A DNA stretch of 64,000 nucleotides from an uncultured delta proteobacterium (GTDB lineage Bacteria > Desulfobacterota > Desulfobacteria > Desulfobacterales > B30-G6): positions 96,001-160,000 of the forward strand of contig CAWGLD010000002.1 in assembly GCA_963823335.1 (NCBI GenBank). Direction: 5' to 3'. The position numbers and the translations under genes are program-made. Positions 1 through 31,496 of this stretch are shown piece by piece; positions within the stretch are counted from its first letter, which is position 1; the number at the start of each line of letters is the position of its first letter. The notes under the pieces are model-generated. The model was not told where the DNA came from. It worked only from the letters and a program-made list of their open reading frames with translations, and searched no databases.

Positions 1-230
1 TGGCCCAGTTTGCGTGCTACTTTCAAAAACTTGCTGTGTCCATACAGCAGGGATTTGGCAAGGTATATACCTCTCGGGAAATCTGCAATGCGTGCTTCCA
101 CTTCCCGCTTGGAGCCGATGATGGACGGCAGCCCTCGTCTTGCCGCAATACAGGCCAGTAAAAGCTTGGCATCCAGCTCGCGTACCTGGTTTTCAACCGG
201 GATCAATAAAACAGGTTTTTTCGACGTCAT
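1..230 (-). CDS. Surface carbohydrate biosynthesis protein paralog 1 (5' part only; runs off the window edge)
   Basis: Minus-strand translation MTSKKPVLLIPVENQVRELDAKLLLACIAARRG... is near-identical to the N-termini of the ORFs at 3562-4959 and 6074-7453; AGGAGG RBS just upstream. Confidence 0.85.
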   Translation of the reverse strand, partial: MTSKKPVLLIPVENQVRELDAKLLLACIAARRGLPSIIGSKREVEARIADFPRGIYLAKSLLYGHSKFLKVARKLG

Positions 231-1373
231 AGCACGTGGTCCTCCTTTCACATTTCGTGGACGTTCACGGTTTCAAAAGTTCAGGGATTCAAGGTTGCAT
301 TGTAGAGCCCTGGATTCCATTTGAAATGCGTATTTACGGCAAAAGCATCAGCTTCATCAGGCCTGCTCCAAAATTTGAGGCCAAAATAATAATTATTTCA
401 CAATAATCTGCAATGGACCACTGATATTTACTATACAGGTCAACAGCATTGCAAGCCCGATAAAGGATGGACATCGAACGTCCAACGTCGAACATCGAAT
501 AGTGATATCGCTCAGTTCCGCAATTTAAATTTATTTTTTACGGCTTTCATTACATAATTTATTGCAATCACATCATGTTCACACATGGTTGATGCCATAG
601 TCAAGATTGAATATTTAAGCAATCCTACCAGTCGAGAGCCTTCCTTAAATTTTCACTATTCAATTCTACGCCTCCGGCCGATCCGGATTGGGTATTTGAT
701 GCACAATCGGTGATGAATTTTTTATAGTCGCCCAGCACGTTGCTGCTGGCGGCATCGCCGTATACAACTTCTGAACTGAATTTGGTGACATTTATCTCCT
801 CATGTTACGATCAAACAGAGGGTGTTTACCACAAGAACCGGCTGCATGGCAAGCCCAATGAAGGATGAATATCGGGCAGACTGAACACCAAGTGCTGAGT
901 ATTTGCGAAAATAGTTCGAAATCGAAACTTTGACCACGCAGGTGGTTAGGCCACTTACCCAATCCGGGCCTCTTCTTCTGGATTTTTTGTTTATGAAACA
1001 GATTTTACGATGGATAATCGGCCAAAACGCCCGACAAAATTGAAGTCAAAAGATTGATAATGGACCACTATCGGCAAGGCCTCCAACGCTGTCAAGAATC
1101 GGTTAATGCCATCTAATCTTTAAGCAGGGCAAATGCCGATGGGACAAAACCGTTAAAACTACAATGCCGGCTCAATATAGCAGCGGATATGGTCACGTCA
1201 AAATACTAGTTGACCCTCTTGATCGGTTACGCTATTTCTGGTATCAGGATATTCCAAAATTAATTGTGAAACTGGAACGAAAAATAGTTTTTTCAAACAT
1301 GCATGAATAATGACGTAGTTTTGTTTTTAATAACCTGTTAATTTTTTTGTTACAAAAAGTGGAGTTTACCCTA

Positions 1374-2433
1374 ATGGAAAAGCGTACATCACAAAAAGCC
1401 AAAGAGCAATACGAGAATAGGTGGGAGGAAGCCTTAGAAATTATTAAGAAAGATATTACTAACAACAAAAAAAGTTTGAGTGAAGTTTTAGACGATTGGC
1501 TTAAATATAAGGTATCAACTCGTTTTGATCAAAATTTCTATTTTGATTTTTACAAAAAATTAGGAATACCTATTAAAAGAGGGCAATCTCCTGAAAAACG
1601 TTACAGTAGTTCAAAATGGAAAATTCGCTGTTGCACCTTTAGATTCTATATTAGACCATAAATTTATTAAAATTTTGGCCAAATATATTTTAGAAAATAA
1701 AAATCGAATTGATTATGTTGTTGAACTTGGAAGTGGCATTGGTATTAACTTGTTTATTCTGGCTGATAAACTTGATCAAGCTATACTACGGCAGATAAAA
1801 TTTTTTTCTTGTGAATTTACAGATTCTGGGAATAAAGCCTGTGAAGAGTTACGTAGATTTAACAATGGATTAAATATGTCTATAGAACATTTTGATTATT
1901 ATAATCCAGATTTTTCGTTTCTTGAGCCAAATAAAAATGTATTATTCTTTACTGCACACTCGATTGAGCAGATTCCGAAAATAGATCGCGCTGTTTTCGA
2001 AGGAATGCTAAAAGTATCGAACCAATGCCATTGCTTTCACGCCGAACCGGTTGGATGGCAGTACGACGAAGAATTGAAGATTAAGCGGGAGCAATTTAAG
2101 CCATATCATTGGAAACGAAAAAAGACGAAATTGGGAAGGAAACTGCTTAAAATTGATCGATGGATGATCTCGAAATTAGGTATTGGTATTGTAGACAGCA
2201 CAAAAAGATATGGAATTGATATAAAGAAAAAGGATATTGGCAAATCGGATAAAGTTTCACCTACTGCAGCACTGTACTCATATTCAAAAGACTATAATAG
2301 TAATCTTGTCTCAATAATAAAGAAGATGGAAGCCGAGGGTTTAATTCGCATTGATTTAGAAATGGTAAATTTATATGGGAAAAAACCGTTTAATCCAAGT
2401 TCGGTTATTTCATGGCATAAGATTGTGAACTAG
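1374..2433 (+). CDS. AT-rich class I SAM-dependent methyltransferase-like protein, split by one frameshift at the A5 run 1594-1598
   Basis: ORFs 1347-1661 and 1675-2433 join into one frame if one A is removed (...PENVTVVQNGKFAVAPLDSILDHKFIKILAK...); motif VVELGSGIG. Confidence 0.55.
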
Positions 2434-2468
2434 AGATTGTTACTTCGATGTTTAAATACCTCTCAAGT

Positions 2469-2556
2469 GTCAATCCCGCGAAAGCAGGAATCTATAGTTG
2501 TACTGGATGCCGGATCAAAGCTTGCCCCCTGACCCGATCCGGGGTCCTGCATAACG
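2469..2556. repeat. REP-like palindromic intergenic element between convergent genes
   Basis: GTCAATCCCGCGAAAGCAGGAATC...GGATGCCGGATCAA...GATCCGG hairpins. Confidence 0.5.
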
Positions 2557-2564
2557 AGATTCCA

Positions 2565-3419
2565 CTATTTCTTCACACACTTCACAATGGAACCCACAAA
2601 GCGCTGGACAATGTTTCGGTTAGCCTTGCGGGAAAGATTTTGGATGTAGACCGATGAATACTCGGGTTCAATTACCGGGTTTTTATCGAGCACCCAATCA
2701 TTTAGGTCATAGCCAATCAACTTCATATAGTTTCTGTAGGCAGGCTTGAACAGTTCGACGTCTTGTTCGGTAAACCACTGTCGCCAATCACCGGAGGCCT
2801 TTTTACGTACAACTTTTGCCTTACCCGTTGATACCGGGACCTCTCCATCTGCCTTGACGCTAAAACCCAGGTATTTGTTGAGAGACTCAAAATTGCCGGA
2901 AATCATATCTTCATATTTAAATAAAAACCAGCTGTTTCCTAATTCTTTGACAAACGTGTGCATCCGATCATAGCGAACCTGCTCTTCGGTGACAACCTCT
3001 TCAATCGAGCGGGGCCAGTCGCCGTGCCCGCTGTAGCGGGACAGTTCGGCAAAGGAAATGGATACCGGGTCTTTTTCCTTTTTCAAAACCAGTTCGAGAT
3101 GGCTCTTATACTGTTTGATCTTGCCTTTGTGGCCTTTGTGCCAGCGGTACAGCATACGGCTGATGGCAACGTCACGGGGATCCCTGGCTATCCAGATTTT
3201 TCGGTCATAGGATTCTTTTTGTAAATGCTCTTTGTACAGATCAAAGTTTTTGCCTTTGCGCTCTTCATAGGTGTGTTTGTAAACTGCGTTTTCAAAGTTG
3301 CCGATGTGTTTTCCGGGTTGACCTCCGGAAAAAGCATGGCAATCTGGAAGTCCACCGGCTATTTTGTACACCATGGCAGTGGTGCCTGATTTTCCTAATC
3401 CCAAGATTAAAACTCTCAT
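2565..3419 (-). CDS. Sulfotransferase-domain (P-loop) protein
   Basis: N-terminal GLGKSGTT (5'-PSB loop), RDPRDVAIS (3'-PB motif), C-terminal RKKASGDW. Confidence 0.7.
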   Translation of the reverse strand: MRVLILGLGKSGTTAMVYKIAGGLPDCHAFSGGQPGKHIGNFENAVYKHTYEERKGKNFDLYKEHLQKESYDRKIWIARDPRDVAISRMLYRWHKGHKGKIKQYKSHLELVLKKEKDPVSISFAELSRYSGHGDWPRSIEEVVTEEQVRYDRMHTFVKELGNSWFLFKYEDMISGNFESLNKYLGFSVKADGEVPVSTGKAKVVRKKASGDWRQWFTEQDVELFKPAYRNYMKLIGYDLNDWVLDKNPVIEPEYSSVYIQNLSRKANRNIVQRFVGSIVKCVKK

Positions 3420-3561: not shown

Positions 3562-4959
3562 TCAAACAAAAATCCGAAAGAGCACGTCACTGAGCTGCTC
3601 AACTTTCAGCGGGGCAGTTTCTCCAATAATCTTCTGTATTCGTTCAATTTTTTCGTTCAGCACCTCAAGACTGATACCCGGAAATTTATGTCTCTGAAAT
3701 TCCGGCCTGTTATGAGAATTTGGCAGGTATGACAACAACCACTTTACCAGGCGGCGTCCATTAGCTATAGAACAAGCCCCCATCCGATCATAAAAAGCCG
3801 GTTTTGATAGTTTGGATCGATCTGCCATCATTGTATCAAGCACATCAACAATTCTCTCACATGCCAGCGGACCGTCCTGTGCAGAAAGATAGTGATCGAT
3901 GTTCGATTGTCTTTCATCACCATCTGCCGCACCGAGTTCACCGGCGATAATTTTTTCAATGGTTACTCGCAGCTCCTCAAAGGTAAAACACTGGTGACTG
4001 AGCAAATTGGGTAACCGATAGAAACCATTATCATAATACTCATTGACGAATGGACGGAATGTGATTGCCGGAACCCTCATCACATAAGCCTCTACTCCGG
4101 TCGTACAACCATTGTGCACAAGCACTTTTGCAGCCAAAAGCCAGGGAACGACGTTACCGTCGTTGGTCACCCGAACATGTTGACACGTTGCAGCAATCTT
4201 GCTGTAGGCTTCGTGATTTTCGGTTGGATGGGGTCTGACGACAATTGTCCAGTCCGGAAACGTCTCTGCTATCGCCGGGATGAGTTTTTTGAACGCATCG
4301 AACAAGGCTTGTTTGTGAGCTCTCAGTCCTTCAGCGAATTCCCGGCTCATGCCTCTGGCGGCCTTGCCAAAGCGTGGTTCTTCACCGGGAGTTTTTACGG
4401 GCCAAGAACAGGTTCTGGTGAGGATAAAAAGCATTGACGTGATTGACATTCGTATTGATGAGGATGAAATTCCCCATGGGCTCTTGCGAATTGCTTTGAT
4501 CTCTTTGGCATAGAAGTCACGCATTTCGGGTCGCAGCATGTCACCGCGAGGATTTCCCGTAATGTGGATCGGGGTCTTGGAAGACAGATGTGGATATTGT
4601 CGCCATAAATCAGCGTTATCCTGACCCCATGCAAAAAGATGGGAAACGTGCTTTATTCCTGTGGGTGAGATTCGACGCGAAAAAAAAGTTTCGGGCGGCA
4701 GATGCACCAGGGCCTCTTCATCCCAGGCCACGATTTCGTGTCCAATCTTGCGCATGATCTGGAACATTTTTCCGCCGCGGGCCGTCATGCTCTTGGAAAG
4801 ATACACGCTCCTGGGGAATGAGGCAATTCGGTTGTCGATTTCCCAGCGTGATCCGATCAGTGCTGAGAACCCCCGGCGAGCCGCAATGCATGCCAATAGC
4901 AGCTTGGGATCCAATTCGCGCACCTGGTTTTCAACAGGAATGATGAGTGATTTTTTCAA
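3562..4959 (-). CDS. Surface carbohydrate biosynthesis protein paralog 2 (putative GT-B CMP-sugar transferase)
   Basis: IPVENQVRELD, WDEEAL, GNPRGD, VVRPHP and VHNGCTTGVEA motifs; TTG start overlaps the upstream stop; local compensated frameshifts at about 4395-4490. Confidence 0.75.
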   Translation of the reverse strand: MKKSLIIPVENQVRELDPKLLLACIAARRGFSALIGSRWEIDNRIASFPRSVYLSKSMTARGGKMFQIMRKIGHEIVAWDEEALVHLPPETFFSRRISPTGIKHVSHLFAWGQDNADLWRQYPHLSSKTPIHITGNPRGDMLRPEMRDFYAKEIKAIRKSPWGISSSSIRMSITSMLFILTRTCSWPVKTPGEEPRFGKAARGMSREFAEGLRAHKQALFDAFKKLIPAIAETFPDWTIVVRPHPTENHEAYSKIAATCQHVRVTNDGNVVPWLLAAKVLVHNGCTTGVEAYVMRVPAITFRPFVNEYYDNGFYRLPNLLSHQCFTFEELRVTIEKIIAGELGAADGDERQSNIDHYLSAQDGPLACERIVDVLDTMMADRSKLSKPAFYDRMGACSIANGRRLVKWLLSYLPNSHNRPEFQRHKFPGISLEVLNEKIERIQKIIGETAPLKVEQLSDVLFRIFV

Positions 4960-6041
4960 TTTTGGGCCTCTAACGCTTCCCAACGTTCAGCGAAAGCGTC
5001 AAAAAGTTTCGGTTCACTGGAAATAGCGCAGATCTCCTGATTGATCCAAAAAGACAGTGTCGACCAATTATAGCTGCCGAAAACAACCCAGCGCCGACTG
5101 CCCTGTTCGACCAAAACAAATTTATTATGCATCGGTAATTTCTCGGCATGCGCGATCCGTCGAAAGGGTATACCCGCCTCGGTCAGTTTCTTTTCGGCCT
5201 TCAAAGATACGCGTCTTAAGGTCGGTTCTGCCAGTATTTCAAGTGAAGCTCCCCGGCGGGCAATTTTCAGCATGGTCTTGATCGCGGTCATCCCATTGAG
5301 ATGCGAGGCCGCGATACGGATGCGGTCACCCTTACCGAAACGTCTGAGGAAGGACGCCGCCGCATGGGATCGGGCCCGGGGCAGGAAATGAATATCCGTA
5401 TGTGTTCCCCGTAAGACACGGTTACCGTCTGCAAAGAATGGCTCAAAGATCCTGTGTCGTGCCCGGTGAATCCATCGCGCATGCTTCACCAGACCGTCAA
5501 CCAGCGCCGGTTCACTGATTCCGACCAGTACGTTATGGGCGCGGTTATGGTCGCCGATTTTGTCAATGACATCCGGCTTCTCTTCCGGGTTGTCGCCGGA
5601 AGGGTTGAAAGACCCGATGAAAGCAACGGGTTTAGGATGAGAAAAGCAATACAGTTTTTCGTGAAGGTTTGGATTGCCCATCTTTCTCCCCGGCATCGGC
5701 ACACGCGGCGGCAGGTATACGGCCCGAAAGCCGCTGCCCAGACCTTGTGCCCCGGAGAGCATGGCAACCACGGCCCTGTTGGCGTGTGGTACATGGGGAT
5801 TTCCTTCCAGGGTCACCCGCACATTAACACTCCGGCGGTGGGCCCGGAGCAACTGCTCGGCCAGCCTCCGGTCGCGGAAATAATAGGTCACCCAGTCAAT
5901 TGTACCGCCTGCCGGTACAGCTTCAATCTGTTCGGCCAACAGATCGCGCAGCCGACCTGCCGGTTGATCGGGGCCACCGAAATAGATTTCATATTGAGAG
6001 CTGGTTGACAATTTAGAGCTCCATCGTGTTATAGGAATCAT
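4956..6041 (-). CDS. Phospholipase D superfamily protein
   Basis: Two HxK motifs each followed by GSxN: LHEKLYCF...GSFN and MHNKFVLV...GSYN. Confidence 0.75.
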   Translation of the reverse strand: MIPITRWSSKLSTSSQYEIYFGGPDQPAGRLRDLLAEQIEAVPAGGTIDWVTYYFRDRRLAEQLLRAHRRSVNVRVTLEGNPHVPHANRAVVAMLSGAQGLGSGFRAVYLPPRVPMPGRKMGNPNLHEKLYCFSHPKPVAFIGSFNPSGDNPEEKPDVIDKIGDHNRAHNVLVGISEPALVDGLVKHARWIHRARHRIFEPFFADGNRVLRGTHTDIHFLPRARSHAAASFLRRFGKGDRIRIAASHLNGMTAIKTMLKIARRGASLEILAEPTLRRVSLKAEKKLTEAGIPFRRIAHAEKLPMHNKFVLVEQGSRRWVVFGSYNWSTLSFWINQEICAISSEPKLFDAFAERWEALEAQN

Positions 6042-6073: not shown

Positions 6074-7453
6074 TTACCCCGCTTGGGGACTGACCTGAAA
6101 GATTTCACTCGAGATTTGATCTACCTGCGACGCACTGCTGTCGCCAAGGGCCTTTTTGATTCGTGAGACCCGTTCACGCACCTCGTCTAAGGATACCCCA
6201 GGATAACGATGGCGATGAAACTCCGGCCGGTTATGCGAATCCGGAAGGTAAGAGAGCAGTTTCTTTACAAATCTCCGCGTGGTTGCCACAGACCAGCCAT
6301 TCATCCGATGAATCAGCGTTGGTTCCTGCATTCGGGAATATTCTGCACTTATTTTCTCGATAACGTCGACAATCCGCTCACAGGCCAACGGCCCGTTTGT
6401 CGCTGCCAGGTGGTGGTCCATCAGCAAGTTGCTCTCATTACCATCTACAGCGCCAAGTTCGCCGGCCAAAATCTTCATCAGGGTTGCCCGCAACTGCTCG
6501 AAATTTAGACATTGATGACTCAACCGGTTGGGCAACTGGTAAAAGCCGTAGTCATAGTAATCATTGACGGTCGCCCTGTAGGAAATGGCAGGGACGCGCA
6601 TGACATAGGCTTCCACGCCTGTGGTACAACCATTGTGGATGAGCGCTTTGGCGGCCATCAACCAGGGGATCACGTTGCCTTCGTTGGTTACCTGCACACG
6701 CTCGCATCGGGCAGCAATTTCGTGATAGACATCATGTTTTTCCGTCGGGTGTGGACGGACAACGATGGTATGGTCCGGAAATGCGTGTTCCAGAGAAGGG
6801 ATGAGTTCTTTGAAGTTCTCGAATATGGCCAGTTTGTGATCCTGAAATCCTTGGGCAAATTCCCGGGTCATACCTCTGGCGGAACGCCCGAAGGTGGGTT
6901 TGTCGCCAGGTTTATTCAGCGGCAGAAACAGGCCCTGGACCGGATAAAAGGCATTTACGTGATTAAAATTGGTGTTGACCAGGATAAAATCTCCATAGGT
7001 GTTGCGGAGTTTTGCCACATCATCTTGAAAAAACCCGCGCATTTCCGACCGCAGCATATCATTGCGCGGATTGCCGGAGATATGGATCGGCACCCGGGTT
7101 GGCAGTTGGGGGTATTGCTGCCACAAATCGACATTGTCCTGACCCCATGCAAACAGATGGGACAGATACCCCATTGCCTCGGGGGAGAGTCGTCGCGAAA
7201 AATAGATCTCAGGCGGCAGATGCACCAGGGCCTCTTCATCCCAGGCAACGATTTCATGCCCAAGCTGGCGCAAAATCTTGAACATCCTGATGCTGCGAAT
7301 CGTCATACTCTTGGAGAGGTAGATGCCTCTTGGAAACGAAGCGATACGAAAATCCAGCTGCTGGCGCGAGCCTATCACCGATGAGAACCCTCGCCGTGCT
7401 GCAATACAGGCCAGCAAAAGTTTGGGGTCGAGCTCGCGCACCTGATTTTCCAC
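6074..7453 (-). CDS. Surface carbohydrate biosynthesis protein paralog 3
   Basis: Highly similar to 3562-4959 throughout; the true start is probably a few codons upstream of 7453. Confidence 0.8.
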   Translation of the reverse strand: MENQVRELDPKLLLACIAARRGFSSVIGSRQQLDFRIASFPRGIYLSKSMTIRSIRMFKILRQLGHEIVAWDEEALVHLPPEIYFSRRLSPEAMGYLSHLFAWGQDNVDLWQQYPQLPTRVPIHISGNPRNDMLRSEMRGFFQDDVAKLRNTYGDFILVNTNFNHVNAFYPVQGLFLPLNKPGDKPTFGRSARGMTREFAQGFQDHKLAIFENFKELIPSLEHAFPDHTIVVRPHPTEKHDVYHEIAARCERVQVTNEGNVIPWLMAAKALIHNGCTTGVEAYVMRVPAISYRATVNDYYDYGFYQLPNRLSHQCLNFEQLRATLMKILAGELGAVDGNESNLLMDHHLAATNGPLACERIVDVIEKISAEYSRMQEPTLIHRMNGWSVATTRRFVKKLLSYLPDSHNRPEFHRHRYPGVSLDEVRERVSRIKKALGDSSASQVDQISSEIFQVSPQAG

Positions 7454-10237: not shown

Positions 10238-10241
10238 TTCT

Positions 10242-13930: not shown

Positions 13931-14101
13931 TTTTAGCTTGGACGCCAGGAAGCTGGGATGCCGCTGTCCGCTGATACTGTCAGCCACCCTCCAACCCTGT
14001 ATCCCCCTCGGACCCTTGAACCCCCTTTTAAGCTGGGACGCCAGGATGCTTGGAAGCTGGGATGCCGCTGTCCGCTGACACTGTCAGCCACCCTCAAACC
14101 C
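13931..14101. repeat. Two direct repeats of about 65-75 bp in the intergenic space
   Basis: GAAGCTGGGATGCCGCTGTCCGCTGA(T/C)ACTGTCAGCCACCCTC occurs twice, about 104 bp apart. Confidence 0.75.
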
Positions 14102-22302: not shown

Positions 22303-23490
22303 TCAGCTGTCACTCCCTGCCAACTGCTTGCTGTAAATACGGTAGGTTTTATAGACCCAGCCGCCAATAGATTCGATTATGGCGCGCATTCCCTTATTGT
22401 CCTCCAGGATCCAGGAAAGTTCCACTTCTTTAATACCGCGGCTTACGCCATATTGCTGGGTACTGCTGATTACGCCGAATGCAAGGGCTGCCCCCATGAG
22501 GCTGTCGTGAAATCGGCAGCGAACGCCCATCAGGGGGATTCGTGCCGATTTCGGGTATCTTACTTTGAGACGCCATAATATTTTAAGCCAGCCAAAGGGC
22601 AAAAGCCTGCCGTTTAGATCCCGAATGACCTCATTTAAGTTCGGCAGGACAACTATGAAGGCGGCCGGTTCGCCATCGACTTCGGCGATTTTCACCAGTT
22701 TTTCATCGGCCAGCATTTTTAAATCCTTACCCAGGTGCTCGAATTCCTTGTTCGTGAAAGGCACAAAACTCCAGTTCTGTGACCAGGCATCATTGAAAAT
22801 ATCCCTGATTATCTGTAATTCATCAGAAAAGTTAGACATGTTCAGGTTTCTGATGTGCATTCGATTCTTGGCCCTCGCCAGGATGGATTTAGCTGCCGCG
22901 GGCATCTCAACTGTCGAGTTTATGTTATACGCCAGCAGGTCTTTTGTTTTGCGATAGCCATTTTCTTCGATTCGGTCGCCGTAATAGGGACACGCATGGC
23001 CCATCATCATCGATGGTGGGGTGTCGAAACCGTCCACCAGCAATCCCAGTTCCTGATTGATGGACAGGTTAAAAGGGCCGTAGATCCGTTGCATTCCCCG
23101 GTTGCGCAACCATGCTTCCGCCTCATTCAGCAAGGTTTGAAAAAGCCGGCTGTTGTCCGCTGCTTCCAACATCCCGAAAAAACCGGTGGCATCCTGATAG
23201 CGGTCAATATGCAGCTGGTCGATTTGAGCACTGACCCGTCCTACAGGTTTACCATCCTGGTAGGCAACCCATGAACAAAATTTTGCATGTTCAAAATAGG
23301 GATTTTTGGGAGAAAGATGCATACGACGTTCAAGGAGCAGGGGCGGAACCCACATCGGGTCATTGGCATAAAGCGACCAGGGAAGGCGAATAAAGTCATT
23401 TAAGGTGTTACGGTTTTCCACCTTTACGATCTTTATTTTTTCGTCGGGATGCCCGGGTTGATGGCTCCCTGGCACTTTCGCAAAATTCAT
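22303..23490 (-). CDS. bcerS: GNAT-fold protein, probable bacterial ceramide synthase
   Basis: DFIRLPWSLY..DPMWVPPL, GRVSAQID, GPFNLSINQELGLLVDGF, ELSWILEDN, YKTYRIY; GAGGA RBS before the ATG at 23490; sphingolipid context. Confidence 0.78.
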   Translation of the reverse strand: MNFAKVPGSHQPGHPDEKIKIVKVENRNTLNDFIRLPWSLYANDPMWVPPLLLERRMHLSPKNPYFEHAKFCSWVAYQDGKPVGRVSAQIDQLHIDRYQDATGFFGMLEAADNSRLFQTLLNEAEAWLRNRGMQRIYGPFNLSINQELGLLVDGFDTPPSMMMGHACPYYGDRIEENGYRKTKDLLAYNINSTVEMPAAAKSILARAKNRMHIRNLNMSNFSDELQIIRDIFNDAWSQNWSFVPFTNKEFEHLGKDLKMLADEKLVKIAEVDGEPAAFIVVLPNLNEVIRDLNGRLLPFGWLKILWRLKVRYPKSARIPLMGVRCRFHDSLMGAALAFGVISSTQQYGVSRGIKEVELSWILEDNKGMRAIIESIGGWVYKTYRIYSKQLAGSDS

Positions 23491-23592
23491 GCAATTGTCC
23501 TCGGTCTGATTTCTGGGGGCATATGACGCCCAAATATCGTTTCGGGGCATGATACACAGGCAGTAAAACCAGGTCAATATTAAAAACGTACG

Positions 23593-23621: not shown

Positions 23622-23759
23622 TCATTTTTAGCAAAGAACTCTTTACAAAAAAAATTAATTTTGTATTGTAAAGAGTTTTCGGCAGTGGGTAAAGTTATAG
23701 AAAATACCTTGGATTCTTCAATTGATGAACCTGATTATGTTACAAGTGGAAATAACCCT

Positions 23760-24551
23760 ATGAAAGCAGTCATATTAAGTGCAGGGCAGGGGAAACGTCT
23801 GCTGCCACTGACAGCGGATCGCCCAAAATGCATTCTTCCCATTAGGGGACAGACTCTCGTTGAATGGCAAATTGACGAACTTGCCAAATGTGGAATCGAC
23901 CAGGTGACCGTTGTCGTGGGGTATCGTGCGCACAAAGTCGAAGAAATTCTGCGCGCACGTTATAGTTCCAACCGGGTACGTACGGTTTACAATGAGGCTT
24001 TTGCTGTTTCAGACAACCTGGTGAGCTGCTGGACTGTCCAGGACGAGATGGACGAAGAATTTATTTTACTGAACGGCGATACCTTGTTTGAGGCGGCTGT
24101 GTTGAAGCGTTTACTTGGCACAGGCGGTCATCCCGTAACCGTGGTCATCAACCAGAAAAATGCCTATGACGCGGACGACATGAAGGTCGAACTGGAAGGG
24201 TGCCGACTGGTCAAGATCGGCAAAGATCTATCGCCCGGTCAGGTTCACGGTGAATCCATCGGTATGATCCTGTTTCAAGACCAGGGCCCGATGTTGTTCC
24301 GCGACGCCATGGAGAAAGCCCTGCGCGATCCTGCTGCACAGAAAAAATACTATCTGTCGGTCATCGATGATCTGGCCCGGAAATTTCCGGTGTGGACCTG
24401 CTTGATTAACGGTCTGCAGTGGTGTGAAGTCGATTTTAAAGCAGACCTTAAACAGGCGGAAAAAGTCGTAGCGGCCTGTTGCCCCGACCGGCAGAGGAAC
24501 GCCGGAGACGACACCTGCCAGTCAACCGGGGCAACCCTGTCGAACCTCTAA
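23760..24551 (+). CDS. Phosphocholine-cytidylyltransferase-family nucleotidyltransferase (CpgD-like)
   Basis: MKAVILSAGQGKRLLPLT..PKC, LLNGD, DDMKV, GESIG, WCEVD. Confidence 0.82.
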   Translation: MKAVILSAGQGKRLLPLTADRPKCILPIRGQTLVEWQIDELAKCGIDQVTVVVGYRAHKVEEILRARYSSNRVRTVYNEAFAVSDNLVSCWTVQDEMDEEFILLNGDTLFEAAVLKRLLGTGGHPVTVVINQKNAYDADDMKVELEGCRLVKIGKDLSPGQVHGESIGMILFQDQGPMLFRDAMEKALRDPAAQKKYYLSVIDDLARKFPVWTCLINGLQWCEVDFKADLKQAEKVVAACCPDRQRNAGDDTCQSTGATLSNL

Positions 24552-24701: not shown

Positions 24702-25778
24702 ATGATTATTGACCGTTATATAATGCGGGAAATCATCAAACCAACGCTGGCGATCTGTGCGATCCTGATCTTGATTTTTGGGTGCTACATGGCAACGGGT
24801 TTCCTGATGGACGCTCTTGCCGGTCAATTACCGGGTACAACGATCCTCCTGCTAATTCTGCTTAGAATCGTTATCGCGCTGGAGGTGTTGTTACCCACTA
24901 CCTTGTATTTGTCGGTGGTCATCGCCCTTGGACGGCTGTATAAAGATTCAGAAATGACCGCTCTATTTGCTTGTGGTGTCGGTACCGGGCGCGTGTTACA
25001 GCCGGTCTTTTACTCCGCCCTGATCATTGCGCTGATTGTTGCCAGCCTGTCCCTTTTCATAAGACCCTTGGCTTACGACAGATATTACCGATTAAAGGCC
25101 CAGGCCCAGGGAACGTTCGATCTTTCTCGCATGAATGACGAAACTTTTTATGAAACTGCGGACGGCAGACGCATCATCTACGCCCAAAAGGTAGACCACC
25201 AGCGAGATAGAGCCAAACGCGTTTTTATTCGAACTGAACGTGATGATACGTTGCAGGTTATTCATGCCAGGCGAGCCAGTCAAACCGAAGATCCAGTATC
25301 CGGAAAAAAAATTATCGTATTCAGCGATGGCTATCTTTATGAATTTTCGCGCACAGGAGACCATGGCAGGGTCCTTCAATTTGAAAAATCAGCAATGACC
25401 TTGGAGCCCACAGAAAATCTGCTGCTGCGGTACCGTGTCAAAGCGGCCACGACCAGATCTATTGCCCGGTCGACCGATCGTGAAGAAATCGCCGAATTCC
25501 AGTGGCGCCTTTCGACGCCGTTGGCCACTATCATGCTGGCGCTGTTGGGTGTCCCACTGAGCCGCTCATCCCCACGCCAGGACAAATATACCAAAGTCAC
25601 CACGGCCGTGGTGATTTTTGCCGTTTATTACAATCTCAGCGCCTTGGCAAAGAAGTGGGTTGAAAAAGGTGTCCTCGATACCTTTCCTGGAATTTGGTGG
25701 GTTCAGTTTCTGATGGCCGGACTGTTGTTGTGTCTTTTCTGGCAGCCAATGCTGGATTTCTTCCGGCGGGGCAGGTAA
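24702..25778 (+). CDS. lptF: LptF-family permease
   Basis: MIIDRYI, GRLYKDSEMTALFACG, AEFQWRLS; 3TM-periplasmic-3TM layout. Confidence 0.88.
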   Translation: MIIDRYIMREIIKPTLAICAILILIFGCYMATGFLMDALAGQLPGTTILLLILLRIVIALEVLLPTTLYLSVVIALGRLYKDSEMTALFACGVGTGRVLQPVFYSALIIALIVASLSLFIRPLAYDRYYRLKAQAQGTFDLSRMNDETFYETADGRRIIYAQKVDHQRDRAKRVFIRTERDDTLQVIHARRASQTEDPVSGKKIIVFSDGYLYEFSRTGDHGRVLQFEKSAMTLEPTENLLLRYRVKAATTRSIARSTDREEIAEFQWRLSTPLATIMLALLGVPLSRSSPRQDKYTKVTTAVVIFAVYYNLSALAKKWVEKGVLDTFPGIWWVQFLMAGLLLCLFWQPMLDFFRRGR

Positions 25779-25785
25779 TACCTAA

Positions 25786-26853
25786 ATGAAAACCATCGAT
25801 CGACATATCGGCAGCAGTTTCCTGCGCAGCTTCGGGCTGGTTGTGATCATTTTGGTCGTGTTGTTCAGTTTTCTGGAATTGTTGTCCCAGTTGGATGATG
25901 CCGGCAAAGGGAATTATCAGGTCCAGGATGTTTTTTTGTTCATTGGTTTGACACTCCCGAAACGCATGCTTGACTTGATGCCTATCAGTACATTGCTCGG
26001 CAGCGTCGTCGCCCTGGGTTTACTGGCCGACCATGGAGAACTGCTCGCCATGCAGGCCGGCGGAATATCGGTTCAGCGGATTTGCTGGTCGATGTTTGCC
26101 ACTGGAATGGTTCTGATATTTTTAACCGCCCTGCTGGCAGAAATGATTGTGCCGCCACTGGACCAGCTGGCCCGCAAAAATAGAGCCCGGGCAATATCCG
26201 GCTCAGAATTCACATTAACAAAGCAGGGCTTCTGGGCGCGACGTGGTTCTACATATATCCATGTCGGTAAAACGCATTCCGGCGGTGTTGCCAACGATCT
26301 GGATATTTTCGAGGCGGATGAGACGGGCCGTCTAAAGACGTATACATATGCCCGCGAGGCGAACATCCAGAACAAGGATCAATGGGTACTCAGGGAGATT
26401 ACCCGCAAAAAATTTACCGATGAGGGTATGGAAACAACACGCATGCCCAGTTTGATACTGGATTCGTTTTTAAGCTCGGAACAGGTTGGATTTCTTGAAA
26501 TACCGGCTGACAGTCTGTCTTCTTCCGATCTTTACCGGTATGCTGAGGCCATGCGTGCAAATGGACAAAATGTCGATCGTTATGCGTTGTCTCTGTGGCG
26601 CAAGTTAAGCGTGCCTTTGTCGACCGGTGCTATGGTGTTACTTTCGCTTACGTTTGTTTTCGGCTTCACGCGCAGGATCACAGCTGGTAAACGTATCATG
26701 ATGGGTTCCTTTGTAGGGGTTATTTTTTATTCCGGCGACCAGGTTATTGTCCATCTGGGGCTGCTGTTGAGCCTCAGTCCCATGATTACCGCGATGACTC
26801 CGGTCGTATTGATTTCAGCAATTGCGCTCTGGAAATTGCGACGGGTGGTATAA
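25786..26853 (+). CDS. lptG: LptG-family permease
   Basis: MKTIDRHI, GELLAMQAGGIS, WRKLSVPL; follows lptF. Confidence 0.88.
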   Translation: MKTIDRHIGSSFLRSFGLVVIILVVLFSFLELLSQLDDAGKGNYQVQDVFLFIGLTLPKRMLDLMPISTLLGSVVALGLLADHGELLAMQAGGISVQRICWSMFATGMVLIFLTALLAEMIVPPLDQLARKNRARAISGSEFTLTKQGFWARRGSTYIHVGKTHSGGVANDLDIFEADETGRLKTYTYAREANIQNKDQWVLREITRKKFTDEGMETTRMPSLILDSFLSSEQVGFLEIPADSLSSSDLYRYAEAMRANGQNVDRYALSLWRKLSVPLSTGAMVLLSLTFVFGFTRRITAGKRIMMGSFVGVIFYSGDQVIVHLGLLLSLSPMITAMTPVVLISAIALWKLRRVV

Positions 26854-26898: not shown

Positions 26899-27912
26899 TC
26901 ATTCGTTTTTTTGCACCGGGTTACTGAGCCGTTGCTCACTCTCTCTGATAAATCGCTTGTCAGAGGGTGAGTAAATGCGGATCTCACGTCTTACTATCCA
27001 ACCAGTGTCGACGTGTGTTATACGATAGATATCGTAACGGGCGCGGCGTTCAGGTGTGCGGCTGAGAGCCGAAACCGAAGGTATGCCGACAACCGGCAGA
27101 TTGCCACTCTGGGTTTGCAGGTTGTGCCGCAGGGCCTCATGAGCGTGACCATGCAGAATCAACTCGGCGCCATAACGCGCCAGAAGCGCCTGCAAGGCCG
27201 TCGCATCTGTCAGGCGTTTTCGCCAGCTGACCGAACCGGGTACCGGTGGATGGTGGATCAGCACGACCCGGTAAAATCGTTTTCGGGCTGTTTGGGACAA
27301 GATTGTGGCCAGTTTTTGCAACTGGCTTATACCGACACTTCCCACGGCCAAATGCGGTGCGCTGGGCCGGGCAGTGCAAACACCGATAATGGCAACACAG
27401 CCCCTGGTGCGTAAGCTGGGAAAGATGGCGTTGGTACCTTCTAAACTGTGGTCATCTTTTTGGAGGTTTTCCGAGAGCATATAGTCGGTCCAGTGGGCCA
27501 TGGTTTGATGCCAGTCGGTTTTAACATAGGTGTCGTGATTACCGGGAATGACGGTAATTTTTGTCGGGGGGCCTAAGGACTGCAGCCATTGTCTGGCTTT
27601 TATAAATTCGGCCGGTAGGCTCAGGTGAGTCAGATCGCCGGTGACGGCAATGTGATCGGGGTCCGTCCGGGCAAGGTCTGTTTTCAGGGCTGCCAAAACG
27701 TGATCTCCGTGCTCGGCACCGCGGTGCAGTTTCCATCTTAAATACCCCAACAGGCGTTTACCGGCCAAATCCCGGCCGGTAATCTCCTTCATGCAGGAAA
27801 TATGCGGGTCGGAAAGATGGGCCAACGCAAACGTTTTAGACGCCACCTGTTTATCCGGTATGGGAGATCGATCATCGATCGTTTGGGATATGGTGAATTT
27901 TTTAGAAATCAT
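26899..27912 (-). CDS. Calcineurin-like metallophosphoesterase
   Basis: HLSDPH, VTGDLT, PGNHD, IHHPP, LHGHAH. Confidence 0.88.
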   Translation of the reverse strand: MISKKFTISQTIDDRSPIPDKQVASKTFALAHLSDPHISCMKEITGRDLAGKRLLGYLRWKLHRGAEHGDHVLAALKTDLARTDPDHIAVTGDLTHLSLPAEFIKARQWLQSLGPPTKITVIPGNHDTYVKTDWHQTMAHWTDYMLSENLQKDDHSLEGTNAIFPSLRTRGCVAIIGVCTARPSAPHLAVGSVGISQLQKLATILSQTARKRFYRVVLIHHPPVPGSVSWRKRLTDATALQALLARYGAELILHGHAHEALRHNLQTQSGNLPVVGIPSVSALSRTPERRARYDIYRITHVDTGWIVRREIRIYSPSDKRFIRESEQRLSNPVQKNE

Positions 27913-28216: not shown

Positions 28217-29413
28217 ATGTCTATTTCTGGTCACATAATCGGTGACAGTCCCGTAAAAATATGGGGATTGACATCTTACGAACGAAAATCTCGTGTTCTA
28301 AAAAGTGCTGGTGTGACACACATTGTGGATGATATTGCCGCTGTGCCGGAGGGCAGTTCGGTCCTGTTGCTCAGGGGCGATTTACTGTTTGATGACCGGG
28401 TGATCAACTACCTGGTGCAGACACCTGATACCCTGTTGAAGATTCCGCAAGGGCCCACAGATGTATGTGTTGCCGCACATGTTGCCATGGACCAGGCCAT
28501 TGAAGCCCGGAACGCGATTTCAGAACCATCCAGCACGGTATTTCCAGTGGGAATAAAGATCGAAACACTGGATAAGCTGTCCATCTCTTTTCAACAAAGG
28601 CTGCTCAAATTCGATCCACCCTTTGTGCTGCCGATCAAATCTGAGCACAAACGAGATTTAGAGCGTCGGCTTTTTGACTGGTCATATAAAGGGGTGACCG
28701 ATTGTGTCACCAAGTGGGTCTGGCCGCGCCCGGCGCGATGGGTTGTCGGCCAATGTGTCCGCTTTGGATTTCGACCGAACCATGTAACCGTTCTGGGCTT
28801 GTTTCTGGCCATACTGGCAGGAATTTTATTTGCTTATGGCTGGTATGGCTCGGGCTTGCTGGCCGGCTGGCTGATGACATTTTTGGATACTGTGGATGGT
28901 AAACTGGCCCGTGTTACCGTTACGTCCAGCAAGTTCGGTCATTATTTCGATCACATCATTGATCTGGTCCATCCACCCCTGTGGTACATTTTCTGGGGGT
29001 TGGGTATGTCCCAGGTCAATTTTGGCGGGTTGTCCCGTACCATTGTATTCTGGATGATCGTGGCCGGCTATATCGGCGGTCGTCTTGTGGAAGGTGTTTT
29101 TCTGACCTGGCTGGGCAAATTCGGAATCTTCTGCTGGCGTCCCATGGACGCTTATTTTAGACTGATTACGGCGCGGCGCAATCCGTGTTTGCTTTTGTTG
29201 ACAGTCGGTTATCTTACGGGTTTTCCGGACTGGGGTTTGTTTGCGGTGGCCGTCTGGACCGTGGCGACCAGCATTTTCCTGCTTATACGCCTTCTGATGG
29301 CACTCAAAACACGGCTGGCGGATGGTCCCATACGGACCTGGTTTTTGGATATCGACCCGGGCAGGCGGCAGCAACCACTGGCAGTCAGATTGTTTACGCA
29401 TCGCGTGGAGTGA
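28217..29413 (+). CDS. CDP-alcohol phosphatidyltransferase family protein (Cpg-type head-group transferase)
   Basis: PNHVT and DTVDGKLARVT...GHYFDHIID signature; KGVTDCVTKWVWP. Confidence 0.88.
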   Translation: MSISGHIIGDSPVKIWGLTSYERKSRVLKSAGVTHIVDDIAAVPEGSSVLLLRGDLLFDDRVINYLVQTPDTLLKIPQGPTDVCVAAHVAMDQAIEARNAISEPSSTVFPVGIKIETLDKLSISFQQRLLKFDPPFVLPIKSEHKRDLERRLFDWSYKGVTDCVTKWVWPRPARWVVGQCVRFGFRPNHVTVLGLFLAILAGILFAYGWYGSGLLAGWLMTFLDTVDGKLARVTVTSSKFGHYFDHIIDLVHPPLWYIFWGLGMSQVNFGGLSRTIVFWMIVAGYIGGRLVEGVFLTWLGKFGIFCWRPMDAYFRLITARRNPCLLLLTVGYLTGFPDWGLFAVAVWTVATSIFLLIRLLMALKTRLADGPIRTWFLDIDPGRRQQPLAVRLFTHRVE

Positions 29414-29442
29414 TTGAGAGATACGCTTTTGGAGAGGTATAG

Positions 29443-30429
29443 ATGCTGCCCGATCACATAAAGTCTCCTGGAACACCGAATATCGGCGTGCTGATGAACC
29501 CCCTCAGCGGTGGAAATCTTAACGGTCTGGATTCAGTGCGGAGTGTTATCAACCAGAATCCGCAAGTGCTTCATCGTGATGTTCAGACACCCCAGGATGT
29601 TTTAGAAACCCTGTTGGATTTTGCCCGCCGGGATGTGAATTTATTGGCGGTCAATGGTGGTGACGGTACAGTACAGGCGGTGCTGACCAACCTTTTTCTT
29701 CATCGCCCATTTAGCGTCATGCCGCTGCTTGCCGTCCTGCAATCCGGCACAACCAGTATGACCGCCAGGGATGTGGGGTTTTCAGGATCACGGGCTAAAT
29801 CTTTAAGGAAATTGTTTAAATGGGCCCACAGCGGCGAAGGTGAACCAAAGGTAATTCAGCGCCCGGTTTTGCAAGTTCAAGCACCCGGCCATCCGACCTA
29901 TTACGGTATGTTTTTTGGTGCTTCGGCCATCTACCAGGGGATTGAATACTTCCATCGCAAGGTAAATACGAAAGGACTGCGGGGTGAGCTGGGCCCCGGT
30001 ATAACCATTTTCCGCTTTCTGTGGTCTGCACTCCGACGACGCAGTGGCTTCATACCACCCATAAATGTGTCTGTCACGGTGGATGGCAAGCCGTCACAAA
30101 ACTTCGATTCCTTTGTGGTTCTTGTCAGTTCTCTGGAACGGCTGTTCCTTGGAATTTACCCATACTGGGGTATGGAGTCAGGCCCGTTACATTACACTGC
30201 CGTTCGGGCGCATCCACGGCATCTGCTGATGGCGCTGCCAGGCTTGTTGCGTGGTCGTCGGGGTAAATTCGGCACCATTGAAAACGGCTATTACAGCCAT
30301 AATGCCCATGAAATCAAGTTGAACCTCGACGGCGGTTTCACCCTGGATGGGCAGCTTTATACCCCTGAGAACCGGGAAAAACCCACCGTGGTGCGCTATG
30401 GCGGTGTGGCGAACTTTATACGGATTTAA
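29443..30429 (+). CDS. cpgB: Diacylglycerol-kinase-family lipid kinase, probable ceramide kinase
   Basis: NPLSG, GGDGT, GTTSMTA, LDGQ; flanked by CDP-alcohol transferase and Tam41-like genes as in the Caulobacter cpg genes. Confidence 0.7.
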   Translation: MLPDHIKSPGTPNIGVLMNPLSGGNLNGLDSVRSVINQNPQVLHRDVQTPQDVLETLLDFARRDVNLLAVNGGDGTVQAVLTNLFLHRPFSVMPLLAVLQSGTTSMTARDVGFSGSRAKSLRKLFKWAHSGEGEPKVIQRPVLQVQAPGHPTYYGMFFGASAIYQGIEYFHRKVNTKGLRGELGPGITIFRFLWSALRRRSGFIPPINVSVTVDGKPSQNFDSFVVLVSSLERLFLGIYPYWGMESGPLHYTAVRAHPRHLLMALPGLLRGRRGKFGTIENGYYSHNAHEIKLNLDGGFTLDGQLYTPENREKPTVVRYGGVANFIRI

Positions 30430-30431
30430 TG

Positions 30432-30540
30432 TTGACGGTTTCGTAAAAAGCCCAACTTCTGCGTTGCAGCTTGCTGCGAGGTTCTTCAATTTGAACTTAT
30501 TACGAAACCGTCCAGTTCGGACTTTTTACGGGTTTATCAA
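30432..30540. repeat. MITE remnant with inverted repeats and an embedded hairpin-element end
   Basis: GACGGTTTCGTAA...TTACGAAACCGTC inverted repeat; contains GCTTGCTGCGAGGTTCTTCAA. Confidence 0.55.
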
Positions 30541-31496
30541 TGTTGAAAATTCCCCCTCAATTGATCGACATCATCAGTCGTAAGACAGACCGCACAGCCT
30601 CGCCGGCGATCAATGTATTGATGGATGAAATCCTGGAACGCCATGGTGAGTCCGCTAAGGCCATCCTGTTTTACGGCTCCTGTCTGCGCTCGGGGGACGA
30701 CCTCGATGGACTGGTGGATCTCTATTTGCTGGTGGACGACTACCGCAGGGCCTATAAAAGTCGTTTGCAGGCCGCTTTGAACGTGCTGCTGCCACCCAAT
30801 GTTTACTACCTGGAGAAAAAATTCCAGGGTCACATGGTGCGGACCAAGTATGCTGTCCTGTCCCTGGCGGATTTTCAAAAGGGAACGTCCATGGGCTGGT
30901 TTCATTCCTATCTGTGGGGCCGGTTCTGCCAGCCGACTGCTTTGCTGTTCGCGCGTAGCGACAAGGTGGCCCAGCTGGTATTCAAATGCTTTGCCCAGGC
31001 CGTTATGACATTTGTCCGGCGTGTGCTGCCGAGGATTTCGCCTGAATTTACCGCCCGGCAGCTGTGGGGCAGGGGTCTTAGCCTGTCCTATGGTGCCGAA
31101 CTCCGATCGGAAAACCCGGAAAAGCAGGCCCGCCTCTTTGATGCCGCTGCAGCGTATTACGAGGAAATCACGGGTCTGGCAGTGGAAGCCCTTTCCTACC
31201 CCGTTCAAGTCCACAAAAGCGACGCTTTGCCACGCTACAGCGTGCACATTACAGCAGGAGAACGACACATCAGCCGACTGGCGTGGAAACTGCGATCATG
31301 GCAGGGCAAACTGCTTTCCATACTGAGACTCCTCAAAGCCACGGCCACCTTTGAAGGTGGCGTGGACTATATTCTGTGGAAGATCGAGCGTCACTCGGGG
31401 GTCACCGTCCATGTCGAGCCACGACTGAAACAACGCCCGTTATTGGCCATGTGGGTGTTGGCTTGGCGGTTGTACCGCCAAGGTGGGTTTCGATAA
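30540..31496 (+). CDS. Tam41/Mmp37-like nucleotidyltransferase-fold protein (cpg-locus hypothetical)
   Basis: FYGSC...DGLVDLYLLVD pol-beta-type motif, LPPNVYY, KYAV, WGRFCQP, YGAELRSE. Confidence 0.6.
   Translation: MLKIPPQLIDIISRKTDRTASPAINVLMDEILERHGESAKAILFYGSCLRSGDDLDGLVDLYLLVDDYRRAYKSRLQAALNVLLPPNVYYLEKKFQGHMVRTKYAVLSLADFQKGTSMGWFHSYLWGRFCQPTALLFARSDKVAQLVFKCFAQAVMTFVRRVLPRISPEFTARQLWGRGLSLSYGAELRSENPEKQARLFDAAAAYYEEITGLAVEALSYPVQVHKSDALPRYSVHITAGERHISRLAWKLRSWQGKLLSILRLLKATATFEGGVDYILWKIERHSGVTVHVEPRLKQRPLLAMWVLAWRLYRQGGFR

Follow-up and report, generated by a model that had tools for sequence, protein, structure and literature searches.

Bacterial loci for complex sphingolipids are already known, as are sphingolipid-bearing diderm bacteria that lack lipopolysaccharide (LPS), such as Sphingomonas, and the head groups known from bacterial sphingolipids are phospho-alcohols, phosphoglycerate, hexoses, and uronic acids. 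The Caulobacter cluster CC_1168-CC_1152 comprises 17 genes, described as ceramide genes, the kinase CC_1160, the CDP-alcohol transferase CC_1159, the phosphoesterase CC_1158, the nucleotidyltransferases CC_1152 and CC_1153, the putative flippase CC_1166, and LptF2/LptG2 (Olea-Ozuna 2024, PMC11324152). A preprint deals with what the second LptFG does in sphingolipid transport and describes Sphingomonas as lacking LpxC, LpxB, and WaaA while keeping Lpt transport (Uchendu 2026, 10.64898/2026.04.12.717747). The locus considered here lies in a window of 64,000 nucleotides from an uncultured member of the Desulfobacterales (contig CAWGLD010000002.1; G000:C2:96001-160000, where G000 is the source genome) and joins a cluster of the Caulobacter type to genes for the synthesis and transfer of an ulosonate, a sugar of the sialic acid or Kdo (3-deoxy-D-manno-oct-2-ulosonic acid) type. 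It probably places this sugar on a ceramide-based anchor, and the resulting lipid would stand in for LPS in this lineage, which has deleted its lipid A-Kdo pathway along with MsbA and the canonical LptFG.

The locus, which probably forms a single system for an outer-membrane lipid, covers the first 31.5 kb of the window and about 8 kb upstream of it, and it ends at position 31496, past which the genes are unrelated. Its right half (14.6-31.5 kb) is the counterpart of the 17-gene Caulobacter ceramide/CPG2 cluster, including an ABC flippase beside spt. The two share (i) a fatty acyl-AMP ligase (FAAL), CerR, an acyl carrier protein (ACP), and Spt, (ii) a GNAT-domain protein, here a candidate ceramide synthase, (iii) a DAGK-type kinase, a CDP-alcohol transferase, two nucleotidyltransferases, and a phosphoesterase, (iv) a putative flippase beside the ceramide genes, and (v) an LptFG pair of the sphingolipid type inside the locus, a correspondence drawn from domain families and the published gene list, with CC_1166 likened to the ABC gene by description only. 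The new part is the left half, which encodes NeuB, a KdsC-type phosphatase, a CMP-transferase, GT-B transferases of the family TIGR04396, a phospholipase D (PLD)-superfamily enzyme with two HKD motifs, and sulfotransferases. As described, the Caulobacter cluster has no NeuB, CMP-transferase, TIGR04396, PLD, or sulfotransferase gene, and Caulobacter keeps LPS and its canonical LptFG; conversely, no LptC2 was seen in the window locus. The same gene block recurs in many other assemblies at 57-94% protein identity, so the arrangement is more than chance.

Prediction of open reading frames (ORFs) together with Pfam and NCBIfam scans recovers every gene that an earlier reading of the letters alone (hereafter the sequence-only reading) had named, in the order it gave and all on the minus strand, from FAAL, the CerR-like gene, ACP, and spt through the ABC gene to the haloacid dehalogenase-type (HAD) phosphatase, neuB, and finally a sulfotransferase. 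The third transferase paralog that it placed at the window edge is likewise there, its N-terminus at 3..251 (minus strand) running off the window and continuing upstream. Spacing was measured from the first start codon of each ORF, and spt and the ABC gene are separated by 36 nt, exactly as claimed. Tight packing was found at most junctions, which overlap by 4, 4, 4, 20, or 28 nt or leave 17-47 nt, with others of 142 and 156 nt, but not between HAD and NeuB (238 nt) or between the short-chain dehydrogenase/reductase (SDR) and the aldehyde dehydrogenase (ALDH; 255 nt).

The abutment of spt and the ABC gene, which the sequence-only reading stressed, is not itself a link between the two modules. 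The ABC gene also adjoins spt in G264 and G305, whose loci have no ulosonate genes, and is part of the core set for sphingolipids; what counts is the junction of the ABC and HAD genes, which lie 17 nt apart on one strand. Other parts of the earlier interpretation hold better, in that they agree with the linkage, the transferase fold and motifs, the type of LptFG, and the exclusion of LPS in this organism described below.

The ceramide genes are recognized as follows (window coordinates are minus strand unless marked +). Spt (16472..17671) reaches 623.1 bits with NF047599 against a cut-off of 500, and FAAL (19029..20810) scores 785 bits with NF006624 against 600. A dedicated ACP with a PP-binding domain (17668..17916) and a CerR-like NAD(P)-dependent reductase, an Epimerase-family SDR by Pfam (17913..18872), are contiguous with spt and FAAL, and these four genes are found together in other phyla as well. 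The GNAT-domain protein (22303..23577; 424 aa) matches Acetyltransf_1 at 29.5 bits (cut-off 20.7) and no NCBIfam model; it is a candidate bCerS by domain and context, and its orthologs in other sphingolipid loci are 39-83% identical. The sphingolipid locus of the congener G305 (L164 = G305:C18:78001-98000, 11261-13600) has no GNAT match between its two nucleotidyltransferase genes, unlike the window, and its ABC gene beside spt is only 51% identical to that of the window. The window's ABC gene (14630..16435) encodes a single-chain exporter resembling MsbA, HepA, and PglK by Pfam and NCBIfam, a candidate sphingolipid flippase that shares 29% identity with a congener's canonical MsbA.

All domain classes of the CPG-type head group pathway, as given in the descriptions of the Caulobacter genes, are also present (PMC11324152). 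They comprise a DAGK_cat kinase that is a candidate ceramide kinase (29443..30429, +), a CDP-alcohol phosphotransferase (28217..29413, +), a metallophosphoesterase (26899..27912), a MobA-like nucleotidyltransferase of the Pfam class reported for CC_1152/CC_1153 (21035..21838), and a second nucleotidyltransferase (23661..24551, +). A Tam41/Mmp37-like protein (30540..31496, +), identified by a weak match of 21.6 bits, is encoded by the last gene of the locus.

The left half includes the genes for ulosonate synthesis. NeuB (12779..13855), which carries a SAF domain and is the only NeuB of the genome, falls within the wider Pfam NeuB family (266 bits) and below the equivalog cut-offs of both NeuB (TIGR03569, 312 versus 399.65 bits) and PseI (245.9 versus 340.25 bits), so its product is referred to here as an ulosonate without a closer name. 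The phosphatase (14094..14612) is of the KdsC family by TIGR01670 (111.7 bits, above the cut-off of 106.95) and stays under the KDN-9-P phosphatase model (93.4 versus 180 bits). The CTP_transf_3 protein (9479..10261), assigned by Pfam and NCBIfam as a NeuA-like CMP-ulosonate synthetase, has CMP-Neu5Ac synthetases as its best solved relatives and scores 143 bits with the PseF model, whose cut-off is 205.7. Between these genes and beyond them lie an SDR (11970..12782) that is of the sugar-acid type by its best NCBIfam rows, all below cut-off, an ALDH (10242..11714; 503 bits), and a three-domain transketolase-family protein (7501..9441) that stays under the equivalog cut-offs. That SDR and ALDH might together yield an ulosaric (dicarboxylic) acid is only a thought.

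A NeuB-SDR-ALDH-NeuA-transketolase cassette with 47-65% identity also occurs in G059 (L084, G059:C7:254526-274525), beside a distant 584-aa TIGR04396-like gene; this genome has LpxC and no Spt, which indicates that the sugar cassette moves independently of the lipid genes. Variants of the sugar genes lie at L138 (12638-14739), L113 (12609-14662), and L080 (12538-14076): in Nitrosospira and a gammaproteobacterium, a NeuB without SAF domain is followed by a CMP-transferase fused to a HAD phosphatase, and two Desulfobacterota loci encode a NeuB-cupin fusion. The sugar genes thus vary among distant loci, with NeuB-cupin fusion, separate HAD, or NeuA-HAD fusion, and the pair of PLD and T2 is constant.

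T2 (6074..7453) and T1 (3562..4983) are 59% identical to each other, and neither has a Pfam family. Both are members of TIGR04396, with 373.3 bits (T2) and 341.5 bits (T1) against a cut-off of 125, and they fall short of the BFO_1060 family model (47.1 and 64 bits, cut-off 200). The BFO_1060 family comprises transferases from Tannerella for which the transfer of pseudaminic and legionaminic acid derivatives has been proven genetically (PMC5420450). In an alignment of 24 sequences, the motifs WDEE (followed by A rather than G) and RPHP are invariant and resemble the D/E-D/E-G and HP motifs as defined for that family (PMC5420450). A model of T2 built on this alignment (pLDDT 91.9) has a GT-B fold, with TarL as its best structural match (Z 19.5, root-mean-square deviation 4.0, 304 residues aligned), followed by UDP-GlcNAc 2-epimerases (Z 17-18), TagF-like capsule polymerases (Z about 17), TagF (Z 15.9), WaaA (Z 13.8), and a polysialyltransferase (Z 12.4). 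The transferase function claimed for these proteins therefore agrees with predicted fold and motifs, which are those of GT-B enzymes that use a CMP-sugar or a CDP donor, and T2 is proposed to be the CMP-ulosonate transferase.

The two-HKD protein (4956..6041) lies between T1 and T2. It matches PLDc_2 in two stretches (84 bits), and the HxK...GSxN signature of both halves (H127/K129/G143-S144-N146 and H305/K307/G322-S323-N325) is invariant in 23 sequences; the aspartate of the classical HKD motif is replaced by S and E in the window protein. Its model (pLDDT 88.7) is bilobed and matches PLD (7e0m, Z 30.9) and the phosphatidylserine synthase of Haemophilus (3hsi, Z 27.7, 309 residues aligned). 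From the chemistry of this family, the enzyme is probably a ceramide-phosphate head-group (exchange) transferase.

The sphingolipid connection is marked by the presence of this PLD. Loci were fetched with T2 (71) and with PLD (80, of which 75 were new) and scanned with all window proteins; the 146 loci merged into 130 groups, of which the 71 of at least 15 kb were used, and two high-GC loci (L049 and L067) were read by tblastn only. A group was scored as having a sphingolipid marker if it held Spt, GNAT, Tam41-like, kinase, or CerR, and because the loci were fetched by homology and include many kin, the counts describe a pattern and not a probability. Among the 42 groups with both T2 and PLD, NeuB or NeuA is found in 41, a marker in 18, and Spt in 10, versus 10, 2, and 0, respectively, among the 20 groups with T2 and no PLD. 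After removal of the window's close relatives, the marker remains in 15/35 groups with PLD versus 1/18 without it. Of 20 distant T2+PLD groups without a flanking marker, 18 come from genomes that encode Spt above cut-off elsewhere, and the other two reach 397-402 bits, below that cut-off. A gene-neighborhood comparison, which the sequence-only reading had proposed as a check, thus finds a conserved linkage of spt and the ceramide genes with neuB/neuA and this transferase family, and this linkage is marked by PLD beside the transferase and not by the transferase family alone.

Gene orders differ among these loci (Spt-ABC-PLD-T2, Tam41-PLD-T2, Spt-PLD-T2, and inverted forms), and the assemblies that carry the module are labelled Desulfobacterales, Thermodesulfobacteriaceae, Methylomirabilota, Myxococcota, Gammaproteobacteria, Nitrosospira, and Nitrosomonas (Nitrosomonadaceae). 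In a sample of 301 genomes drawn evenly from the phylum, 11 have Spt above its cut-off, 10 have TIGR04396, and 6 have both; in four of these six co-carriers the genes are at most 10 kb apart on one contig, and the other two have them on short contigs. Within the genus, PLD occurs in G000, G302, G304, and G307, which are exactly the complete T2-positive genomes searched, and was not found in the congeners G305, G301, G308, and G309.

By its gene content, the source organism is an LPS-free diderm, in which the genes for lipid A-Kdo synthesis have been lost and outer-membrane assembly and the Lpt system have been kept. LpxA, LpxB, LpxC, LpxD, LpxK, WaaA, and KdsA were not found in G000, a genome estimated to be 93.9% complete. 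At the site that lpxC occupies in G264, a genome of the same gene order, a remnant of 34 codons with a stop remains between conserved neighbors about 520 nt apart. Contig 8 has the order lolDE-bamA-skp-fabZ-DUF4416 with 47 nt between skp and fabZ, and lpxD and lpxA/lpxB are missing in place; in the congener G301, lpxD, lpxA, and lpxB flank fabZ. The rest of the approximately 22-kb LPS cluster of G301, which encodes MsbA, an ArnT-like protein, LptFG, LpxK, a ligase-like protein, Stealth proteins, and three heptosyltransferases, has no orthologs in G000. BamA, Skp, LptD, LptB, and one LptFG pair are retained. With no lipid A pathway left, LPS cannot be the ulosonate acceptor in this organism, as far as gene content tells.

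The retained LptF and LptG are those of the locus (24702..26853, +; assigned by NCBIfam and identity) and form the only pair in the genome. Their identity to the pairs in the sphingolipid loci of G264 and G323 is 52-68%, against 20-23% to the canonical pairs of these genomes and to the pair of G301, and their Pfam scores (224-237 bits) lie below those of canonical pairs (260-305 bits). A canonical pair placed in the locus by chance is ruled out by these identities, despite scores of both proteins above the NCBIfam equivalog cut-offs for LptF and LptG. Where a genome has LPS as well as Spt, it carries two LptFG pairs. The export role that had been assigned to the local LptFG is consistent with a pair that is of the sphingolipid-linked type by sequence and has no second pair beside it. 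For LptC, tblastn of the genome with the L080 protein gave no match, a query too distant for this to count as absence.

Across the ten species of the genus, LpxC was found in G301, G308, and G309, all without Spt and TIGR04396, and was not found in G000 and G302-G307, six of which have Spt (G000, G302, G304, G305, and G307) and/or TIGR04396 (G000, G302, G303, G304, and G307). The seventh, G306, is 83% complete, and neither Spt nor TIGR04396 was found in it. The combination of absent lipid A-Kdo genes and a kept Lpt system is also seen in the congeners G304 and G307, in a phylum where 281 of the 301 sampled genomes have LpxC. Elsewhere in the phylum, the seven genomes of genus g74/family f49 (G079, G146, G177, G207, G237, G265, and G293; 99-100% complete) have no LpxC match in 7/7 and no Spt match at E≤1e-100, and they appear to be a lipid A-free lineage without sphingolipids.

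Taken together, these genes suggest the following route. FAAL, ACP, Spt, the CerR-like reductase, and the GNAT protein would make ceramide, to which the kinase, the CDP-alcohol transferase, the Tam41-like protein, the two nucleotidyltransferases, and the phosphoesterase would attach a head group of the phospho(glycerate) type, following the Caulobacter CPG2 pathway. In the cytoplasm, NeuB would condense phosphoenolpyruvate (PEP) with a phosphorylated aldose, the KdsC-type phosphatase would dephosphorylate the product, and the NeuA-like enzyme would convert it to CMP-ulosonate, while transketolase, SDR, and ALDH would supply or modify the sugar. The TIGR04396 GT-B transferases would then move the ulosonate, possibly as an oligomer, to the ceramide-based anchor, with PLD probably acting by head-group exchange, and the sulfotransferases may sulfate the lipid. 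The MsbA-like ABC protein would flip the finished lipid, and LptB, the sphingolipid-type LptFG, and LptD would carry it to the cell surface, where it may take the place of LPS in the membrane. A wider proposal is more tentative and less likely than not: this Desulfobacterota clade would have undergone a "sphingo-LPS" swap, in which a ceramide-phosphate anchor with one or more NeuB-type ulosonates, possibly sulfated, is assembled in the cytoplasm, flipped by the dedicated ABC protein, and delivered by LptB with the sphingolipid-type LptFG and LptD. The PLD-TIGR04396-NeuB-phosphatase-CMP-transferase module would be the counterpart of the Kdo/WaaA inner core, old, mobile, and spread over several phyla including cultured ammonia oxidizers.

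Several observations on gene distribution, the transferase copies, the assembly, and the RNA evidence weigh against the placement of the ulosonate on a sphingolipid. The only characterized relatives of T1 and T2 are described as glycosylating protein O-glycan (PMC5420450). TIGR04396 is not specific to sphingolipid genomes, as four of the 10 positive phylum genomes (G040, G059, G117, and G131) lack Spt above cut-off, and TIGR04396 together with NeuB/NeuA occurs in genomes without Spt. T2, PLD, and the ulosonate genes were not found in G305, which has Spt and no LpxC, so a cell of this kind can do without the module. On its other flank in Nitrosospira multiformis, the module is accompanied by genes of the LPS type (Wzy_C ligase-like, Kdo hydroxylase, GT2, and ArnT-like), and LPS may thus be the acceptor in that organism. 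All of this, along with the 238- and 255-nt gaps, which are the widest in the run, fits a reading in which the ulosonate genes build a separate glycoconjugate, either a Tannerella-like protein O-glycan or an acidic polymer whose anchor is not a sphingolipid, and in which their adjacency reflects clustering or co-regulation of envelope genes. This explanation deserves attention yet is unlikely, given that the PLD-bearing module is tied to sphingolipid genes both by position and by genome (18/42 versus 2/20 groups and 18/20 genomes) across phyla and in different gene orders, that the ABC and HAD genes are nearly contiguous on one strand, and that Pfam and NCBIfam scans of the locus return no polymer-export or undecaprenyl phosphate (Und-P) genes, namely no Wzx/Wzy, Wza/Wzc, KpsMT, or Und-P priming transferase. 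LPS loss as a general trait of module carriers is ruled out, as G010, G052, G155, G164, and G323 have Spt, T2, and LpxC, and the absences noted for G000 come from an assembly of 11 contigs with 93.9% completeness and 4.6% contamination.

The transferases themselves leave room for two further explanations. The modelled fold of T2 fits a cytidine-nucleotide donor, and it fits a CMP-sugar and a CDP-alcohol alike. The TIGR04396 proteins might accordingly be TagF/TarL-like phospho-alcohol transferases that use a CDP donor such as the CDP-phosphoglycerate of CPG2 and extend the phospho-head group, the ulosonate not being the unit moved. TarL, with CDP-ribitol, is the top structural match and TagF follows, Glyphos_transf is present in 19% of the members of an Atlas cluster of look-alikes, and the locus has two nucleotidyltransferases, with CpgD described as a CTP:phosphoglycerate cytidylyltransferase of the same Caulobacter pathway (PMC12275187). 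Such a role is nevertheless improbable: NeuB or NeuA stands beside the transferase in 41/42 T2+PLD groups, Spt loci with a full CPG-type set exist without T2 (G264 and G305), neither T1 nor T2 matches Pfam Glyphos_transf (PF04464), and the UDP-GlcNAc 2-epimerases come so near to TarL that the fold ranking is not decisive. Decay of the transferase set, with the sugar pathway as a remnant and the adjacency without function, is suggested by the assembly, in which only one of four transferase copies has an undisturbed frame. In T1, about 27 residues (window 4398-4482) are out of frame, unlike in all relatives, and the conserved stretch GxFILxNTNxNHVNAFYP is encoded in another frame, which implies two compensating indels; the third copy is split over two frames (G000:C2:94903-96209), and the fourth, on the opposite strand (89793-90851), is in at least four pieces with TGA. 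For T1, the defect may stem from assembly or be peculiar to the strain, as one contig from an RNA run lacks the extra base at 4482. Split genes occur in otherwise essential loci of congener assemblies too, and the split lptG, lpxK, kdsA, and PLD genes seen there suggest indel errors in such assemblies. The frames of T2, PLD, NeuB, HAD, NeuA, transketolase, SDR, and ALDH are all open, their products have counterparts of 57-94% identity in many assemblies, and RNA-library contigs cover them, so decay is very improbable.

The RNA evidence comes from four estuary metatranscriptome runs, whose contigs, 95-99% alike to the locus, cover 21-27 of 30 bins between 2300 and 21900 and thus both halves. 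Bridging contigs connect PLD with T2, CerR with FAAL, and HAD with NeuB, the last with a replaced spacer. The ABC gene is thinly covered, and among the matches listed no contig bridges spt-ABC or ABC-HAD, which neither shows nor excludes co-transcription; such contigs have no power to reveal whether one transcript spans the run, and carried-over DNA may contribute to the libraries. In the same interval, 30 promoter-like sites were counted versus 20.0 ± 4.6 expected and 18 terminator-like sites versus 22.8 ± 5.1, and no convincing promoter or terminator was seen at ABC-HAD, HAD-NeuB, or SDR-ALDH, which speaks neither for nor against a transcription break. Rfam returned nothing at gathering scores in 1-33000.

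The edge of the locus differs in composition, with a G+C content of 39-43% in window positions 1-4000 versus about 50% in the rest. This stretch covers the sulfotransferase gene (2565..3419; Sulfotransfer_1, 28.7 bits) and a 252-aa ORF without family match (1675..2433, +) that is 89% conserved in the closest loci. The upstream 8 kb (within L009 = G000:C2:78001-97000) complete the third transferase copy and add two more sulfotransferases, the fragmented fourth copy, and a GT4-like gene. Farther upstream, a pyrrolysine (Pyl) system (L009, 1-8950) comprises a tRNA-Pyl (CUA) at L009:2111-2184 beside genes for a class II synthetase core, an ATP-grasp protein, and a B12-binding corrinoid protein. 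The system also includes methyltransferase genes for dimethylamine and trimethylamine, each with one in-frame TAG; they give full-length proteins if it is read as Pyl (positions 349 and 337). Directly after the locus, window 31754-32125 encodes a 23S rRNA intervening-sequence protein, and a diadenylate cyclase of the CdaA-YbbR type is encoded at 42732-44165, both unrelated to the finding.

A sialic-acid/Kdo-type sugar on ceramide, if confirmed, would constitute a new lipid class, and a whole class of ulosonate-bearing bacterial sphingolipids would have gone unnoticed. A survey of the literature by titles and abstract openings, with subscription journals largely outside its reach, returned no coupling of ulosonate synthesis to bacterial sphingolipids and no report of Desulfobacterota that lack lipid A. 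No ulosonate head group is reported in the part consulted of a sphingolipid survey of the Black Sea (PMC11334938). The module is present in assemblies labelled as the named strains Nitrosospira multiformis, Nitrosomonas spp., and Panacagrimonas perspica, which makes the prediction directly testable. The genus offers a natural, recent experiment in lipid A loss, with sister species that have and lack LPS: lost with LPS are lpx, kdsA, waaA, msbA, the heptosyltransferases, and the canonical lptFG, and kept are bamA, lptD, lptB, and the sphingolipid lptFG. It bears on two questions raised in Caulobacter, one on a possible transport of sphingolipids by the Lpt bridge and LptD and the other on the conditions that let a cell do without lipid A, and it is of relevance to environmental lipid records and to the design of endotoxin-free envelopes.

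Among known systems, the BFO_1060 family of Tannerella forsythia provides the closest characterized relatives of T1 and T2 by NCBIfam, with a predicted GT-B/TagB-like fold and a nonulosonate pathway alongside, but its acceptor is a protein-linked oligosaccharide and no PLD partner is mentioned in the account of it (Tomek 2017, PMC5420450). With Sphingomonas, the source organism shares the state of an LPS-free diderm in which lpx genes are gone and Lpt is kept; sphingolipids take the place of LPS in Sphingomonas, which belongs to another phylum, and the loss seen here is independent and, because congeners keep LPS and an lpxC remnant is still visible, recent. The first sugar of Sphingomonas glycosphingolipids is glucuronic or galacturonic acid and not a NeuB-type ulosonate. 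Gangliosides share with the proposed lipid a sialic-acid-type sugar on a ceramide lipid, and sulfated glycosphingolipids also exist in animals; gangliosides, however, carry sialic acid on a neutral glycan added by GT29 enzymes in the Golgi, whereas here there is no sign of a hexose bridge, and the two sets of enzymes are not related. Group 2 capsules are built on a poly-Kdo linker on lyso-phosphatidylglycerol by KpsS/KpsC and exported by KpsMT. They resemble the proposed route in the cytoplasmic transfer of an ulosonate from a CMP donor to a membrane lipid and in ABC-dependent export, and they differ in their glycerolipid anchor and in the KpsMT, KpsD/E, and Capsule_synth genes, of which the locus has none. 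The lipid A-Kdo route proceeds through KdsA, KdsC, KdsB, WaaA, MsbA, and LptB2FG. The present locus differs from it in a synthase of the NeuB and not the KdsA family, a transferase of TIGR04396 and not GT30, a proposed ceramide anchor in place of lipid A, and additional PLD, transketolase, SDR, ALDH, and sulfotransferase genes. Yet the two share their logic throughout, from a PEP-dependent synthase for a sugar phosphate, a KdsC-family phosphatase, and a CTP_transf_3 enzyme to a GT-B transferase that would use a CMP-sugar on a membrane lipid at the cytoplasmic face, an MsbA-type flippase, and Lpt.

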